A DNA stretch of 5,423 bases. Origin: a virus (Duplodnaviria > Heunggongvirae > Uroviricota > Caudoviricetes). This document shows, one piece after another, positions 1 through 5,423 of the stretch (position 1 is its first letter; each line of letters starts with the position of its first letter). The stretch is taken from IMG/VR virus record IMGVR_UViG_2681813313_000009. One strand, written 5' to 3'. A program made the position numbers and the translations under genes. The notes beneath the pieces were generated by a model, which did no database searches, had not been told where the DNA came from, and saw nothing but the letters and a program-made list of their open reading frames with translations.

Positions 1-60
1 CCGGCAGAAGCAGAAAAAGCTTATTATGCTTCCATCGGAAACGATGATCTGGCAGCCTGA
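1..60 (+). CDS. Possible 3' end of a gene starting upstream of the window (partial; C-terminus ...PAEAEKAYYASIGNDDLAA)
   Basis: Plus frame 1 is open from nt 1 to a TGA at 58-60. Only 19 codons are visible, and two minus-strand frames are also open across the same 60 bp, so coding status is unresolved. Confidence 0.15.
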   Translation, partial: PAEAEKAYYASIGNDDLAA

Positions 61-62
61 GT

Positions 63-1151
63 TCACAGATAAAACACTCTCCAGGAAACCCGGGGCGGTT
101 CATTCAGAACATCCAGTAGATTTTCCGCAGGTACACGATGGGCGTTATCCAGAACCAGCACCAAGGTGGTACCCTGCTCTTTCAGGTAGGTATCAAAACT
201 CCTAAGAGCCTCAAAACCACTGGCACCGGGGAGCAAAATCCTGCGCAAACCGTCTTGGTCACGGGCTGTAAATCTAGCAGCCATCTCGCGCACCAGCGTA
301 CTGGCCAGAGCTGGACCGGGAAGATCACCGGTGTCGTAATAAGCACAAAGTGCAGTGGAGTGTAATGCGGCCTGTGCGGCCCAAGCTGTCTTGCCTGCAC
401 CTGAGAGTCCACAAAGGATACGGATCCGCTCACCAGATGTGAGAGAAGGTTCTTCGTTCTGTGGGCGGTACAGTGCTGGTGGTGCAGGAAAGTCCTGTAG
501 CTGAACGATCAACTGTTCAAATAGTTCAGTAAGTTCTTCCGTGAAAAACGTATGTTGTCCATTGGTATCGCCTCCGGTGGCGGCAAGCTGAACCAATCCT
601 GCTAACTTCCAAATCAAGGATTCTGGGGACAATAGTGAAAATTTCAGCTTTTCTGCTTCTGCGATACACCATGTGGCCGCATCAGCCAGAGTACTCCATG
701 CGGGCGGAAGTGCCGGGTGACGTCCAGCTGTCGACTGGGGCCAGACAATAAGAACATCAGAAGGAAGCTTTTTATCGTCAATCATCTTCTGAAGCAGCGG
801 TCCAGGCGCCTGGTTTACAATAATCACAAAAGAAGCCACCCCTTCGCGGTTTGCCGAAGTATGCTCATTTCTGAGCTTTACAAATCGCTCCAGAGCCCCC
901 GACACATCGTTGGGCATAATAGGTTTTGAACGGGTTTTAACCTGAATGTAGAGACGTTCCTGTTTGGATTTCAGCTCAATATCCTCATCAAGCTCGACAG
1001 TTACTGAGTCCATAGCTGCCCTCTGCGCCAAAAGTAAGCAGCCTACAGCGTAAAGATGCTGGTAAAGGAACCCCCGGTGTACCGCTTCGATACGCACCAA
1101 CTGCACAGGATCCAGTACGTCCAGATTTTGTTTGTTTTCACTTCCCCACAT
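63..1151 (-). CDS. Putative defence-type protein: N-terminal PD-(D/E)xK-like nuclease region fused to a P-loop NTPase with STAND/AAA_16-like Walker A and Walker B (possibly truncated)
   Basis: 362-codon ORF with ATG at 1151-1149, an AAGGAA Shine-Dalgarno-like sequence about 6 nt upstream, and TGA at 63-65. Walker A GLSGAGKT lies at residues 248-255 (nt 387-410). A hydrophobic strand ending in Asp, LVLVLDNAH, lies at residues 330-338 (nt 138-164), 82 aa later. The N-terminal part contains ELDEDIELK...ERLYIQVK (about nt 936-989), compatible with a (D/E)xK nuclease core, and a GFLYQHLYAV segment. The ORF ends about 27 aa after the Walker B-like motif, which is short for a complete NTPase domain. 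Confidence 0.6.
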   Translation of the reverse strand: MWGSENKQNLDVLDPVQLVRIEAVHRGFLYQHLYAVGCLLLAQRAAMDSVTVELDEDIELKSKQERLYIQVKTRSKPIMPNDVSGALERFVKLRNEHTSANREGVASFVIIVNQAPGPLLQKMIDDKKLPSDVLIVWPQSTAGRHPALPPAWSTLADAATWCIAEAEKLKFSLLSPESLIWKLAGLVQLAATGGDTNGQHTFFTEELTELFEQLIVQLQDFPAPPALYRPQNEEPSLTSGERIRILCGLSGAGKTAWAAQAALHSTALCAYYDTGDLPGPALASTLVREMAARFTARDQDGLRRILLPGASGFEALRSFDTYLKEQGTTLVLVLDNAHRVPAENLLDVLNEPPRVSWRVFYL

Positions 1152-1394
1152 GACCTATTCCTTGAGCTATTTGTTTGACGGACTCACATTAGTACTTCAA
1201 TGTAATCAATTGAACTTGAATTATAATTAAAAGAGGCAAAGAAAAGTCATTTGGCCTATTCTCCGTTGATTAATACAAACTAACGATACCAACGTTCACC
1301 TAGCTCAAAGCTGACAACCAGACTAGGTCTGGGCCTGTGCCATCGAAGTGTCAATTAATATCTGAACTAATGCTCTTTAATTTCGTCACTTCAA
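1152..1394 (-). promoter_or_regulatory. AT-rich intergenic region upstream of the nuclease-NTPase gene; likely promoter/leader
   Basis: Strongly AT-rich compared with flanking coding sequence. Contains a 10-bp direct repeat TCAATTAATA (1353-1362 and 1391-1400) and ATTAAT-type palindromes. No convincing ORF. It sits immediately 5' of the ATG at 1151 on the minus strand. Confidence 0.4.
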
Positions 1395-1565
1395 TTAATA
1401 CCGAACATTTCCCTGATAAAATTCCAGTATGCGCTGCATAACTTCGCTCTGACGACACTCGCGACAAATTATATTCTGTCGTCTGTTGTAACGGCGTATT
1501 TCGCCATCTAGCAATGAATAAATCAGGTCAGGGTCGCTCTTCTTTTTCACTGCCGCTCTCGACAT
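1395..1565 (-). CDS. Possible C-terminal continuation of the 1528..1803 gene in the +1 frame (frameshift-split gene), or an independent small ORF
   Basis: The ORF-track frame 1395..1646 overlaps 1528..1803 on the same strand. The two frames cross at an A8 run (T8 on the plus strand, 1565-1572). Removing one A would fuse the N-terminal 79 codons of the upstream ORF to 57 codons of this frame (...KARKKMSRAAVKKKSDPDLIYSLLDGEIRRYNRRQNIICRECRQSEVMQRILEFYQGNVRY). No independent RBS is evident for a start at 1646 or 1565. Confidence 0.3.
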   Translation of the reverse strand: MSRAAVKKKSDPDLIYSLLDGEIRRYNRRQNIICRECRQSEVMQRILEFYQGNVRY

Positions 1566-1803
1566 TTTTTTTGCGGGCTTTTCCCCAGTCCTTACGAGCC
1601 TGCTCCGAAGGAAATATTCCATGTCCTGAACCATATACTGCGCCACTAACTACCAGCTCTTTCACCAGAACTTCTATCAGGTGTCTCGTCGCCCCGGTTT
1701 CATTTTCCAGTTGTTTACGCGTTTTTCGCCCATCTCTGCGTACCAGTTCCACAATGCGCGCCTTCACTTCTTCCCGCAGTTCGGGAGTAAAAACTTTTGC
1801 CAC
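1528..1803 (-). CDS. Small basic HTH-like protein (91 aa), function unknown
   Basis: GTG start at 1803-1801 preceded by a strong AGGAGG Shine-Dalgarno about 5 nt upstream on the minus strand (plus-strand CCTCCT at 1808-1813). The product has a helix-turn-helix-like segment (RKTRKQLENETGATRHLIEVLVKEL) and a Lys/Arg-rich tail. It lies 37 bp downstream of the rep-like gene on the same strand. Confidence 0.55.
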   Translation of the reverse strand: MAKVFTPELREEVKARIVELVRRDGRKTRKQLENETGATRHLIEVLVKELVVSGAVYGSGHGIFPSEQARKDWGKARKKNVESGSEKEERP

Positions 1804-1840
1804 AAGCCCTCCTGAAAATTACCCCATGACCTGAAATCTG

Positions 1841-2911
1841 TTACCCTCTGAATCCCGGCGGAATTTCGGTGTCCGGTTCAGAAATATGATTAACACAACG
1901 CTGGTTGTTCGTGCCGCTTACCGGGAGCAACCAGGGGTTTTCAAAATTCCGGTCCGGTCCAAAAAACGTCGTCGCTCGCTGAACAAATTCCGTTCCCGTT
2001 TTCCCGGTAGCAGCCAGGTATCTTGTGTAACGCCTTACACCATCCAGCATGGCCTCTGGTGGCACCCCCTCGCGTAATCTGGCCTTCCAGGCACTGAAAG
2101 CGGATTTCTTCGGGTTTGCCCCGGCTCGTAACGGGTATTCCCGCCAGACCTGTTCGAACACATCCGGATAATCCACTCGTCCCACAGGCTGCCCGGTGTT
2201 TTCCGGGACTACCCGATCGGCTTCCCGCTGAATGGCGGAATCGGCTTCAGGCTGCTGCAGTTGGTGTGATTGCTCCGGCCCAGCGGTCATCGCCTGCTGC
2301 ACAGCGCCCGAATCGGCTTTCAGCGCATACGCTGAATCGGCTTCCGGTGTCGTGCCTGCGGGCTGGCCAGGAGTGACGGTCTGAACATCCCCTACATGGT
2401 TCGTGGCGTTTTTTACGCCATGGACCATAGTGTTTTGATCTTCTTTATCTGTATCTCTATCTGTATCTTTATCTGTCGTGACTCGTCGTGACATGTGCGT
2501 GACATTTCGTGACGCGCCGTGACAATCGCCATTTTGTTCCCGCTTTCTTTCCCTCTCACGCTGCGCCCTCTTGCGCTCTGCCGGAGATTTTGCGGTTTGC
2601 GAAATATTGCCGTTGTCCTCTTTAAGCACCTGGCGTTTTTCCCATCCAGTGATTAAATCACCATCAAGTACCCGCCCCTGCATCGTCTGCAAAATTGAAT
2701 CAATTACCTCTTCTGTCACGTCGAGCGCACTTGCCAAATCTTCTGTCGTGACATCAATGTGACCTCGCGTGACATTTCGTGACGCGCTCACCAGGAGGTG
2801 GATATACACTGCCATCACTGTTGCAATTGGCTGCCCTGACACCCTGGCAATTGTTCGCCACTTAGGGTCATTTGGCATGTCATGCCATAATCTGAGCCAG
2901 GCGTTAGCCAT
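1841..2911 (-). CDS. Phage replication initiator / replisome-organizer-like protein (N-terminal winged-helix DNA-binding domain, acidic low-complexity linker, conserved C-terminal domain)
   Basis: ATG at 2911-2909 with GAGGTG 3-4 nt upstream; the ORF track starts two codons earlier at GTG 2917. TAA stop at 1841-1843. The N-terminus MANAWLRLWHDMPNDPKWRTIARVSG... follows the W-x-hydrophobic...DPK pattern I associate with phage replisome-organizer N-domains. The C-terminal segment FEQVWREYPLRAGANPKKSAFSAWKARL... resembles a motif common in phage replication proteins. Iteron arrays lie inside the gene, as in lambda O. It sits where a replication gene is expected, downstream of the cro/cII-like genes. 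Confidence 0.6.
   Translation of the reverse strand: MANAWLRLWHDMPNDPKWRTIARVSGQPIATVMAVYIHLLVSASRNVTRGHIDVTTEDLASALDVTEEVIDSILQTMQGRVLDGDLITGWEKRQVLKEDNGNISQTAKSPAERKRAQRERERKREQNGDCHGASRNVTHMSRRVTTDKDTDRDTDKEDQNTMVHGVKNATNHVGDVQTVTPGQPAGTTPEADSAYALKADSGAVQQAMTAGPEQSHQLQQPEADSAIQREADRVVPENTGQPVGRVDYPDVFEQVWREYPLRAGANPKKSAFSAWKARLREGVPPEAMLDGVRRYTRYLAATGKTGTEFVQRATTFFGPDRNFENPWLLPVSGTNNQRCVNHISEPDTEIPPGFRG
2447..2523. repeat. Candidate origin: three 12-bp T-rich tandem units followed by five CGTGAC iterons at 10-11 bp spacing
   Basis: ATCTGTATCT recurs at 2447 and 2459, with a partial copy at 2471 (12-bp period). CGTGAC occurs at 2477, 2487, 2498, 2508 and 2518, about one helical turn apart. 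The array is inside the rep-like coding sequence. Confidence 0.6.
2747..2787. repeat. Second iteron cluster (four CGTGAC-type repeats) including the second copy of an exact 21-bp direct repeat
   Basis: CGTGAC at 2747, 2768 and 2778, plus an imperfect TGTGAC at 2758 (10-11 bp spacing). The 21-mer GCGTGACATTTCGTGACGCGC is identical at 2497-2517 and 2767-2787. An inverted GTCACG lies at 2715-2720. Confidence 0.55.
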
Positions 2912-2982
2912 ACTCACCTCTTCTGATACCGAATCTTTTTACTCACGAATTGCCGGAAGCGATTCGATATGGCTATTGTCAG

Positions 2983-3408
2983 TCAATGTACTGCCACAGC
3001 ATTTCCTGCCGGGCCACCACGGTTCATCTGATTGAAACCGGCGATTGCCACTGCGACAAAATCATCAGCGTCTCTCACCAGTCGCTCCCGCGTCTCCACC
3101 AACTCCCGAAAATAAGCTGAACTGTGGCTGCGCATTCTGGCCACCAGCAAAGGTGGCATTGCCTTTTCGATCGCTGGTAACAACGCCTGAATTTTTTCAA
3201 CTGCATCAGGGGTGTCTTTCTCTACCCAGCGGAAAATTTTCTGGGTATTGCGAGCCAGGGCTTCCGGATGGCTGTCGTCATACAGTTCAGGAAACGTCAT
3301 ACCCAACTCAAAATAAGCCTGGGTTATTCCAGCTGCTGGAACTTTTTCGCCATCAGGACGCGCCCAGGCATTCATCGCCATGCGGATGTGTTCATGCTTG
3401 ATTTTCAT
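2983..3408 (-). CDS. ydaT: YdaT-like protein (CII-analogue regulator of Rac-type prophages; historically annotated as a toxin)
   Basis: 141-aa ORF with ATG at 3408-3406 and an AGGAG Shine-Dalgarno about 8 nt upstream. It overlaps the 3' end of the upstream Cro-like gene by 17 bp. The N-terminus MKIKHEHIRMAMNAW... and the length match my recollection of the YdaT family; position immediately after a YdaS-type gene supports this. Not verified by search. Confidence 0.5.
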   Translation of the reverse strand: MKIKHEHIRMAMNAWARPDGEKVPAAGITQAYFELGMTFPELYDDSHPEALARNTQKIFRWVEKDTPDAVEKIQALLPAIEKAMPPLLVARMRSHSSAYFRELVETRERLVRDADDFVAVAIAGFNQMNRGGPAGNAVAVH

Positions 3409-3673
3409 GAATCAAGCTCCTAGTAAGTGGTTGTGTTAACGTTTTGGTATCTTCCAGCTCGGGCCAAATATTCATCCAATCAAAAGGCCTTAGTTGCTGA
3501 CGTGTAACTTCACCATTACTGGCTCGCTCAATAAGGACACATAACGATGCCCCTAACATTTGACCTTTACTCAATGCCTTTCTTAGATAACCGATGCTAG
3601 TACCACACTCACATGCAAACATACGCTGTTCATCTGACGAAAGAGAATTGAGAAATATTCTTAATTCTTCCAT
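3392..3673 (-). CDS. ydaS: YdaS-family Cro-type HTH regulator
   Basis: 93-aa ORF with ATG at 3673-3671 and an AAGGAG Shine-Dalgarno 6 nt upstream. The product contains ...CGTSIGYLRKALSKG...CVLIERASNGEVTRQQLRP..., resembling the YdaS/Cro-like family pattern (IERAT-GEV...LRP). It is transcribed divergently from a CI-like repressor gene. Confidence 0.6.
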   Translation of the reverse strand: MEELRIFLNSLSSDEQRMFACECGTSIGYLRKALSKGQMLGASLCVLIERASNGEVTRQQLRPFDWMNIWPELEDTKTLTQPLTRSLIHENQA

Positions 3674-3682
3674 AGCTACTCC

Positions 3683-3770
3683 TTAGTAAACACAGCAAAG
3701 AATACCCACAGGTAAACAAAAGTCAATACCCTTGGGTTGTTTACCTTGCGGTAATCGCATCTATTATTTA
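3683..3770. promoter_or_regulatory. Divergent promoter/operator region between the Cro-like and CI-like genes
   Basis: Repeated half-site (A/G)GTAA(A/T)C: AGTAAACA at 3685-3692, GGTAAACA at 3711-3718, inverted copy TGTTTACC at 3738-3745, and GGTAATC at 3750-3756. CAGGTAAACAA (3709-3719) and TTGTTTACCTTG (3737-3748) form an 11-12 bp inverted repeat with a 17-bp spacer. Candidate leftward promoter on the minus strand: -35 TTGACT (plus 3721-3726) and -10 TATTCT (plus 3699-3704). Candidate rightward promoter: -35 TTTACC (3740-3745), -10 TATTAT (3762-3767), placing the start at or near the ATG at 3774 (leaderless). Confidence 0.5.
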
Positions 3771-3773
3771 CCT

Positions 3774-4193
3774 ATGGACAAATATGAATTTAGACGACAA
3801 CAACTCATCAAAATTCGTGATGAGAAATGCGATGGTAAAGCGGTTAACGTGGCCAGAAAGATCGGTCGCGAGCCTTCTTATGTATCAAGAATGTTGTACC
3901 CAGAGGGGAAAAAAGGAAAAAAACGGATCGCTGATGATATGGTGGAGATTATAGAAGAGTCCTTTGGGTTACCCCGGGGATGGATGGATGGTATCGTTTC
4001 ATCATCAACGAACACAGCCTCCAATTATGAAACAAGGGTTCTAACGCCACGACAACGTATTTTTTTAGATCTCTTAGACGAACTGCCAGAAAGTGAAGCG
4101 GATAACTTATTAAAAACTCTTGAAGAGAAAAAACAGTATTACAATATGATCTACGAAGAAATCCGTAAAAAGAAAGCACAAAACGCATCATAA
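3774..4193 (+). CDS. CI-like prophage repressor (N-terminal HTH, no obvious peptidase S24 domain; RacR-like position)
   Basis: The ORF track starts at 3732 (MGCLPCGNRIYYLP...), but that extension has no RBS and is compositionally odd. The ATG at 3774 gives MDKYEFRRQQLIKIRDEKCDGKAVNVARKIGREPSYVSRM... with an HTH (AVNVARKIGREPSYVSRM) near the N-terminus. No Shine-Dalgarno, consistent with a leaderless mRNA from the adjacent TATTAT. TAA stop at 4191-4193. Divergent from the cro-like gene. Confidence 0.6.
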   Translation: MDKYEFRRQQLIKIRDEKCDGKAVNVARKIGREPSYVSRMLYPEGKKGKKRIADDMVEIIEESFGLPRGWMDGIVSSSTNTASNYETRVLTPRQRIFLDLLDELPESEADNLLKTLEEKKQYYNMIYEEIRKKKAQNAS

Positions 4194-4235
4194 CTCACCA
4201 AACAACCAGTCACCAGTTAAGACACATCAAAAAAT

Positions 4236-4275
4236 TACCCATGGGTATTTACTTTTTGGATACCCATGGGTATCC
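4236..4275. promoter_or_regulatory. Tandem perfect palindromes (12 bp and 18 bp) sharing a CCCATGGG core; candidate operator or terminator
   Basis: TACCCATGGGTA at 4237-4248 and GGATACCCATGGGTATCC at 4258-4275 are each perfectly self-complementary and are separated by about 9 bp. They lie in the 265-bp gap between the CI-like gene and the small-ORF cluster. The second is followed by TTCCTTTC. Confidence 0.45.
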
Positions 4276-4458
4276 TTCCTTTCATACCAACCCACCCCAC
4301 CCCACAGAATGCAGGGCAATACTTCGAGTTACCAGGCAGTGGTCAGGGGTTAAGTAGCCAGCCCGAGGCGTAAGAACATGACGGCAGGGTTCAACTTTAA
4401 TAACTATGCAGCAGGTTTTTGTTCCGCTACCCCGGCGTTAAGGGGAAATGAGGTCAAC

Positions 4459-4614
4459 ATGGATACTATCGATCTTGGCAACAACGAATCTCTGGTGTAC
4501 GGCGTGTTTCCCAACCAGGACGGTACGTTCACCGCGATGACGTATACCAAAAGCAAAACGTTTAAAACCGAAAATGGTGCCCGTCGCTGGCTGGAAAGAA
4601 ACTCAGGTGAGTGA
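4459..4614 (+). CDS. Small hypothetical protein (51 aa)
   Basis: The internal ATG at 4459 of the track ORF 4378..4614 is preceded by GAGGT 4-5 nt upstream. Product: MDTIDLGNNESLVYGVFPNQDGTFTAMTYTKSKTFKTENGARRWLERNSGE. The upstream extension from 4378 lacks an RBS. Position and size recall the small ydaF/ydaG-type genes beside racR in Rac, unverified. Confidence 0.5.
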   Translation: MDTIDLGNNESLVYGVFPNQDGTFTAMTYTKSKTFKTENGARRWLERNSGE

Positions 4615-4992: not shown

Positions 4993-5423
4993 TAGCTAAT
5001 CAACAAAGCTAAGGTTAGTAATTAAGGAGTTCTCCACGGGTGAGGTGGAGTGCGTGCGCCGGACACGGGTGAGCATCCGGCATTGACAGTTTACTGAAAG
5101 GATATTTCCCTGAAAAGTCAGACCATAACGCGAAAGCGCACGGCGAGGTAGCTGGTTCATAGATAGCCTGTCGTTAAATTTTCGTCGACCGTGCGCTTCC
5201 GGTTGTGGCAATCCGCGAAATGGCGCGGCGGTAAGTATGGCGGGGTTATTCCTTCCCCCGTTGAGGACACCGGGTTGTCAGGTTGACCATACGCTTAAGT
5301 GACAACCCCGCTGCAACGCCCTCTGTTATCAATTTTCTGGTGACGTTTGGCGGTATCAGTTTTACTCCGTGACTGCTCTGCCGCCCTTTTTAAAGTGAAT
5401 TTTGTGATGCGGTGAATGCGGCT
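4993..5423. other. Apparently non-coding, GC-rich region with long inverted repeats (possible regulatory site or structured RNA)
   Basis: No convincing ORF; the only track ORF here (4996..5211, minus) has Arg-rich, non-protein-like composition and no RBS. AGCGCACGG (5135-5143) pairs with CCGTGCGCT (5189-5197), a 9-bp perfect inverted repeat with a 45-bp spacer. GGGTTGTCA (5272-5280) pairs with TGACAACCC (5300-5308), 9 bp with a 19-bp spacer. A TTGACA hexamer sits at 5083-5088. Confidence 0.3.

Follow-up and report, generated by a model that had tools for sequence, protein, structure and literature searches.

The disrupted minus-strand gene at the left end of the window (the whole stretch of DNA analysed here, 5,423 nucleotides in length) is almost certainly a pseudogene, in which a prophage-borne, 932-aa Avs-like defence candidate has been interrupted by the insertion sequence IS1203. 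The window corresponds to the complete contig CXZW01000059.1 (5423 bp) of the draft assembly GCA_001285525.1 and ends 102 bp into the IS. Short-read assemblies typically break within multi-copy IS elements, and the contig stops at this place because the short-read assembler was unable to resolve such a repeat. A preliminary description of the window had proposed that a longer Avs-like STAND gene was cut off soon after its Walker B motif, possibly by a frameshift, and had offered a genuinely short protein as the alternative. The existence of the longer gene has been borne out, since intact alleles and homologues have 932 aa and the predicted fold matches a STAND-TPR protein and Avs3. With regard to truncation by a frameshift, the location of the break (in the 63-105 region) stands, whereas the mechanism does not: an IS1203 insertion takes its place. 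The coordinates of all features are collected in Table 1.

Table 1. Features located in the window (coordinates refer to its first nucleotide; residue numbers refer to the intact protein)
Feature	Position	Strand	Remarks
IS1203/IS629-type right (3') end, IS3 family	1-102	+	100% identical to annotated IS1203 copies
Transposase (OrfAB/OrfB) C-terminus	1-60	+	last 19 codons and TGA 58-60; ...PAEAEKAYYASIGNDDLAA*
Right terminal inverted repeat TCTCCAGGAAACCCGGGGCGGTTCA	78-102	+	terminal IS3-family CA; includes the CCGCCCCGGG run
Target-site duplication, one copy	103-105		TTC on the plus strand, GAA on the coding strand; 3 bp
Truncated ORF	63-1151	-	362 aa: 350 native and 12 IS-encoded residues; TGA 63-65 within the IS
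Native proximal gene part	103-1151	-	1049 nt: codons 1-349 and 2 nt of codon 350
IS-encoded C-terminal residues (12) EPPRVSWRVFYL	66-101	-	read-through into the IS1203 terminal repeat
Walker B strand LVLVLD	147-164	-	residues 330-335; final NTPase core strand before the break
Walker A / P-loop GLSGAGKT	387-410	-	residues 248-255; from translation and AAA_22 match
Cap4-type dsDNA endonuclease core	918-1079	-	residues 25-78; still present in the truncated product
Replication initiator	1841-2917
cII/YdaT-like gene	2983-3408
cro/YdaS-like gene	3392-3673
Repressor-like gene	3732-4193
DicF RNA	5335-5386

The break was located by a three-way alignment. On the coding strand, the native part of the gene shows 0 mismatches to the first 1049 nt of the intact allele (WP_000264572.1), after which the match ends abruptly at nt 102/103 and the sequence to the left switches to 100% identity with IS1203. 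Past the break the intact gene reads ...LLDVLNATTHIRF, whereas the window DNA left of nt 103 is wholly unrelated to it. At the protein level, the window ORF reads ...LLDVLN-EPPRVSWRVFYL*, as against ...LLDVLN-ATTHIRFVLLCQP... in the intact protein. As 350 native residues are kept, 582 (62%) of the 932 residues are absent from the window ORF. Translation confirmed that the TGA at 63-65 falls exactly 27 codons past LVLVLD, as had been described. The identical 362-aa sequence has been deposited as CTS66186.1, CTU38831.1, CTW54556.1 and WP_261289285.1, the last of which is named 'ATP-binding protein' in RefSeq. The nuclease domain in this ORF was detected by PF14130 at 27.8 bits, a narrow margin over the cut-off of 26.2, and by the PADLOC model for LmuA (a Cap4-type effector) with E = 3.9e-7. 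A promoter and terminator scan of nt 1-1500 returned nothing exceeding shuffle expectation.

The identity of the DNA to the left of the break is established along its full length. Window nt 1-102 show 0 mismatches to the end of a 1310-bp reference copy of IS1203 from O157:H7 (L004:393-1702), and approximately 4,070 of 5,426 complete E. coli genomes contain copies of this IS end, the median being 3 places per genome. When nt 1-1300 were compared with these complete genomes by megablast, the query fell into two parts: nt 1 to about 120 matched thousands of records of an 'IS3 family / IS1203 family transposase', and nt 98-1300 matched a 'SEC-C metal-binding domain-containing protein' gene in 15 genomes. 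The 25-nt inverted repeats of the reference copy (TGAACCGCCCCGGAAATCCTGGAGA and TCTCCAGGAAACCCGGGGCGGTTCA) are 88% complementary, with arms 1260 nt apart, and its right arm is the same as window nt 78-102. The plus-strand frame ending at 58-60, correctly noticed in the preliminary description, reads ...ASIGNDDLAA* and is the C-terminus of the IS1203 transposase; the CDS annotated as 'IS3-like element IS1203 family transposase' stops at the same position in the reference copies. It had been suggested that a conserved plus-strand gene ending at nt 60 would speak against a truncated gene. Such a gene is literally there, but as a transposase it explains the truncation and does not refute it.

Other sequence features to which significance had been attached are also accounted for by the IS. 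The C/G run at nt 89-98 is real (CCCGGGGCGG on the plus strand and CCGCCCCGGG on the coding strand), and the other two minus-strand frames indeed stay open between about nt 100-105 and the window edge, one of them containing SGCQIIVSDGS. Both frames are antisense to the IS1203 transposase; one of them stops 78 codons into the full IS1203 copy, in which antisense frames stay open for 159 codons at most. These frames thus carry no information on the NTPase. The SGCQIIVSDGS reading, which had been loosely compared with a sensor-1 strand, is antisense IS sequence, and the true sensor-1 strand, IRFVLLCQP (residues 355-363), lies beyond the IS.

The opposite side of the insertion was identified in public sequence data. 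The ORFs expected beyond the IS were predicted for a target duplication of either 3 bp or 4 bp and then sought by exact sequence. Predicted distal fragments of 575 aa and 560 aa were present in the protein collection, and a 584-aa form (corresponding to a 4-bp duplication, TGAA) and a 573-aa form were absent from it by exact-sequence lookup; the presence of the 575- and 560-aa forms and the absence of the 584-aa form agree with the 3-bp duplication that was read directly. The 575-aa form (CTU38492.1 and CTW53074.1) shares its accession series with the 362-aa entries CTU38831.1 and CTW54556.1, and the RefSeq identifiers of the 362-aa and 560-aa products (WP_261289285.1 and WP_261289284.1, respectively) are consecutive. 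Among the three 362-aa depositions, two have a matching 575-aa entry and one, CTS66186.1, has none.

The 575-aa fragment is encoded on contig CYBR01000061.1 (L006) of the sister assembly GCA_001277515.1. The first 98 nt of this contig match the IS1203 left end without a mismatch, and the junction consists of ...GGGGCGGTTCA (IS left end), the second copy of GAA, and TGCAACTACACAT..., which is the gene from codon 351. When the proximal part in the window and the distal part on L006 are joined and one GAA is removed, the 2799 nt of the intact allele are restored without a mismatch. The contig continues with hokD, DUF968, rusA and Q, the same order that is found downstream of the intact gene. Together, the two junctions carry every mark of a simple transposition by an IS3-family element that duplicates a 3-bp target. 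The reciprocal junction comes from a sister assembly with the identical truncated ORF, and we strongly infer the same arrangement for the strain of the window. The exact junction was not found among the 5,426 complete E. coli genomes.

Uninterrupted, the gene (allele WP_000264572.1, L001:4257-7055) comprises 2799 nt and encodes 932 aa. The gene is present at no less than 99.3% identity in 16 complete E. coli genomes (0.3% of 5,426), 15 of which carry it uninterrupted; in the sixteenth carrier, AHB10 (NZ_OZ546984.1), it is split by ISEc52 at gene nt 584-587, and both halves are kept. A protein search returned 933 homologues, the best 120 of which are almost uniformly 932 aa long and come from Serratia, Providencia, Klebsiella, Yersinia, Vibrio, Shewanella, Pseudomonas and others, with identity down to 49%. 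Nearly all of these 120 have 901-961 aa, a few are shorter (731-884 aa), and none ends at residue 350. On the basis of the best 120 of 933 homologues, the family is widespread in Gammaproteobacteria and uniform in length, and a natural form of about 360 aa appears not to exist among them. Conservation was read from an alignment of 35 homologues. Across these sequences, the acidic/QxK motif of the nuclease (E53, D55, D57, E59, Q70 and K72), the P-loop residues G248, G251, G253, K254 and T255, and the Walker B pair D335-N336 are all invariant. The C-terminal 580 residues are also strongly conserved in the same alignment, with invariant residues across positions 351-931, such as L359-P363, R378, G383-W384, H525-D526 and E591-G597.

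Domain searches with Pfam assigned three regions of the intact protein to known families: a Cap4 dsDNA endonuclease (25-78), AAA_22 (239-364, above the cut-off) and a SEC-C motif (914-931). The SEC-C motif (PF02810; CPCGSG-x-KYKKCHG) scores 38.8 bits against a cut-off of 20.4, and it is encoded on the distal fragment, outside the window ORF. An AlphaFold2 model of the intact protein (mean pLDDT 79.3) was built on the 35-sequence alignment. In this model, the Walker B strand (330-335) is followed by a helix (342-350) and by the next core strand (356-361), which holds the sensor-1 position and, lying on the far side of the IS, is missing from the window ORF. A helical domain (386-474), a winged-helix-like unit (483-538) and helical repeats (541-909) are modelled further downstream. 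By fold similarity, the helical and winged-helix domains that are predicted to follow the nucleotide-binding domain complete a STAND core, and the all-helical repeats modelled at 541-909, with many TPR proteins among the fold matches, form a C-terminal TPR-like sensor. The top Foldseek match in the PDB was a STAND-TPR protein (6mfv, E = 8e-14, TMt 0.63), and further matches included Avs3 in complex with terminase (8dgc, E = 8e-12), EfAvs5 and the resistosomes of plant NLRs. The predicted order of effector nuclease, STAND NTPase and TPR-like sensor, which is that of Avs proteins, suggests that the intact gene is Avs-like.

At the level of profiles, the family is more difficult to place. No Avs/AVAST, bNACHT or PD-lambda-4 match was obtained for either the truncated or the intact protein in PADLOC-DB 2.0.0 (E <= 1), the matches there being solely to LmuA-type nuclease-domain and SEC-C-motif models. 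NCBIfam yielded nothing beyond SEC-C-motif families and a sub-threshold DUF4297 match, PHROGs gave a SEC-C-motif match only for the intact protein, and a sequence search of the PDB returned only the zinc-motif peptides of the SecA C-terminus and YchJ, and no solved structure related to the body of the protein. A literature search found no paper mentioning WP_000264572 or the product names, nor experimental work on the family. A named Avs family has not been established for the intact protein in a comparison that covered the families profiled in PADLOC, Avs11-24 (named in 2026; PMC13581612) standing outside it.

The window derives from a Qin/Rac-type lambdoid prophage of E. coli, of which it constitutes the early region; besides the genes listed in Table 1, it encodes DUF977, DUF1391/ydfA, ydfB and ydfC. 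The STAND gene lies between the replication genes on one side and hokD and the nin-region genes on the other. Neither an SMC partner (LmuB) nor a cyclase or HerA was found near it. A defence role for the intact family is suggested by this prophage context together with the domain architecture.

In the proposed course of events, a 1310-bp IS1203/IS629-type element of the IS3 family would have transposed into codon 350, duplicating the 3-bp target GAA, at a site between the Walker B and sensor-1 strands of the NTPase. For a simple insertion, the distal junction would consist of the IS1203 left end followed by GAATGCAACTACACAT, and the remaining part of the gene would be located beyond the IS on another contig. 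Translation of the proximal part runs 12 codons into the IS terminal repeat before stopping at TGA 63-65. The 362-aa product retains the nuclease domain together with roughly two thirds of the nucleotide-binding domain; lost from it are sensor-1, both the helical and the winged-helix domains, the entire sensor and the SEC-C motif. For SeAvs3 and SeAvs7, autoinhibition is reported to be lifted when the sensor binds its target, the Cap4 nuclease being assembled through ATP-dependent tetramerisation (PMC13581612). By analogy, the cut between Walker B and sensor-1 would deprive the 362-aa product of every part required to sense and to oligomerise, and it is expected to be inert. We therefore infer a loss of function, and the fragment is most likely a dead defence gene.

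Several other explanations of the truncated ORF were considered. A frameshift or indel in the C/G run at nt 89-98, truncating a longer gene that continues in another minus frame, is suggested by the run itself and by the two minus frames open from about nt 100 to the window edge. Its probability is nevertheless vanishingly small: everything to the left of nt 103 is IS1203 at 100% identity, the C/G run sits within the terminal inverted repeat of this element, and past nt 103 the DNA is unrelated to the intact gene, the open frames being antisense to the transposase and closing within 78 codons. The three-way alignment shows IS1203 leftwards from nt 102 and no indel in the run. Equally, there is hardly any chance that the ORF represents a genuine short nuclease-NTPase of about 360 aa, the frame ending at 58-60 belonging to an unrelated convergent gene. 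In favour of this reading are the conserved plus-strand gene that terminates at this position and the RefSeq entry WP_261289285.1 for the 362-aa product; however, the convergent gene is the IS transposase, and the last 12 residues of the ORF come from the IS repeat. Moreover, in the predicted structure the stop falls in the middle of the NTPase fold, ahead of the sensor-1 strand, and the strong conservation of the C-terminal 580 residues and the lengths of the best 120 of 933 homologues (almost all 901-961 aa, none ending at residue 350) also speak against a short form. The short protein put forward in the preliminary description is accordingly rejected, no homologues of about 360 aa ending at this point being present among these 120.

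Two further possibilities concern the integrity of the assembly and of the locus. An assembly chimera, in which a read from an IS copy was misjoined to an intact gene that is whole in the real genome, is conceivable in that the contig ends within a multi-copy repeat, where short-read assemblers do err. It is highly improbable, given that the identical 362-aa junction ORF occurs on three contigs or depositions and that the reciprocal junction shows a perfect 3-bp duplication, the two junctions rebuilding the gene exactly. It is also unlikely that, after the IS1203 insertion, the strain of the window underwent a deletion or rearrangement mediated by the IS, leaving the distal 582 codons absent or elsewhere. 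The origin of the distal contig, which came from the sister assembly and not from GCA_001285525.1, and the lack of a matching 575-aa entry for CTS66186.1 point in this direction, but at least two assemblies with the identical truncated ORF keep the distal half abutting the IS left end, and the absent third entry can be explained by another start-codon call or another contig break. The simple IS1203 insertion is thus retained. It is an ordinary event, the killing of genes by IS elements being commonplace in E. coli, and is neither a frameshift, a new short protein nor an assembly error.

The insertion matters mainly for correct annotation. Databases split the pseudogene into an 'ATP-binding protein' (362 aa) and a 'SEC-C domain-containing protein' (560 or 575 aa). 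As these pieces belong to one pseudogene, they should be listed neither as a short NTPase nor as a working defence system. More generally, a contig that terminates within an IS copy can give the false appearance of a truncated or frameshifted gene. The intact 932-aa family, of which the PADLOC 2.0.0 models cover the nuclease domain and the SEC-C motif only, is a reasonable Avs-type candidate. It is possible, though rather doubtful, that this family constitutes an uncharacterised Avs-type sensor apart from the named families, that its zinc tail recruits a host factor, and that the IS hits reflect a cost of carrying the gene. Avs7 recruits EF-Tu, a parallel that has been drawn for possible host-factor recruitment by the SEC-C zinc tail. 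The idea of a fitness or autoimmunity cost rests on the IS1203 and ISEc52 insertions in E. coli.

With respect to known insertion sequences, the element agrees with IS1203/IS629 of the IS3 group in every feature compared. Its 102-bp right end and 98-bp left end are 100% identical to annotated IS1203, and the TG...CA inverted repeats, the 3-bp target duplication and a transposase ending 42 bp before the right end are all alike. The reference copies have 1310 bp and are annotated with a 'programmed frameshift', whereas the present copy is read over its outermost 102 bp and 98 bp. In O157:H7, espY2 is split by the reference copy in the same manner; only the target gene and site are particular here. 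The ISEc52 insertion in AHB10 represents an independent IS3-family hit in the same prophage gene, which likewise yields two annotated fragments; it differs in its site (at about residue 196, in or just past the nuclease domain) and in its duplicated overlap of 4 nt.

Among defence systems, the closest resemblance in architecture is to Avs proteins with a Cap4 effector (SeAvs3, 8dgc; SeAvs7, PMC13581612), with which the intact allele appears to share the order of nuclease, NTPase and TPR-like sensor, and like other E. coli STAND defence genes it is prophage-borne. On the other hand, the chain of Avs3 has 2028 aa as compared with 932 aa, Walker B of the intact allele is an invariant D-N rather than D-D/E, and a C-terminal SEC-C zinc motif is present, for which no mention in connection with Avs was found in PMC13581612. 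The window allele differs from Avs in lacking everything after Walker B. The N-terminal nuclease is also shared with Lamassu LmuA, CBASS Cap4 and DUF4297 proteins, a likeness that concerns the effector domain only: in contrast to these effectors, the intact protein fuses the nuclease to a STAND NTPase of its own.

Interruption by an insertion sequence was found more than once in the 932-aa Avs-like gene. In E. coli AHB10, ISEc52, an IS3-family element other than IS1203, interrupts the gene at gene nt 584-587, at about residue 196, with flanks that overlap by 4 nt, and this split is an event independent of the IS1203 split. In the AHB10 annotation, each half of the gene has its own protein entry, one of 200 aa and the other of 719 aa, and further fragments of 194, 394, 499 and 530 aa are present in the 90%-identity cluster. 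Similarly, the halves of the IS1203-split pseudogene (window 63-1151; L006:124-1851, on the sister-assembly contig CYBR01000061.1) appear in public databases as ordinary separate proteins. In RefSeq, for example, the entry WP_261289285.1 is named "ATP-binding protein", whereas its counterpart WP_261289284.1 has the name "SEC-C domain-containing protein".

Features of the locus and of related loci
Feature	Location	Strand	Remark
SecA-type SEC-C zinc motif, C-terminal end of intact protein	residues 908-931; L001 (intact allele) 4257-4330		outside window
Codon N336	window 144-146	minus	alignment A2
DUF977 gene	window 1395-1803	minus	neighbour of STAND gene
DicF antisense sRNA	window 5335-5386	+	Rfam RF00039, 76.7 bits (gathering score 48)
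932-aa gene split by ISEc52	L005 (NZ_OZ546984.1, E. coli AHB10) 536-4587

In the STAND NTPase, the Walker B aspartate is followed by asparagine, and this pair (D335-N336) is invariant in all 35 homologues of alignment A2. The usual residue at this position in P-loop NTPases is acidic (D/E). Judging from N336 and general knowledge of P-loop NTPases, NTP hydrolysis may be slow or absent in the 932-aa family.

The SEC-C tail of the intact protein was found by PDB sequence search to be nearly identical to the C-terminal peptide of SecA, one PDB entry of which, 1ozb, is the complex with SecB. Among the best 120 of 933 homologues listed, most have kept the motif, and it is absent from a few proteins of 901-916 aa. 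No mention of a SEC-C-type tail for Avs proteins was found in PMC13581612.

The neighboring DUF977 gene carries a T-run of 8 (A8 on the coding strand) at window 1565-1572, versus a run of 7 in the intact, 138-aa AHB10 allele, and because of the resulting +1 frameshift it is divided into two overlapping ORFs (1528-1803 and 1395-1646). An assembly error is an unlikely source of the A8 run, since the complete E. coli genome Z1322HEC0003 has the same allele, annotated there as "frameshifted"; the frameshift is genuine.

The DicF sRNA, which is located downstream of ydfC, marks the locus as a lambdoid prophage of the Qin/Kim dicB-dicF type.
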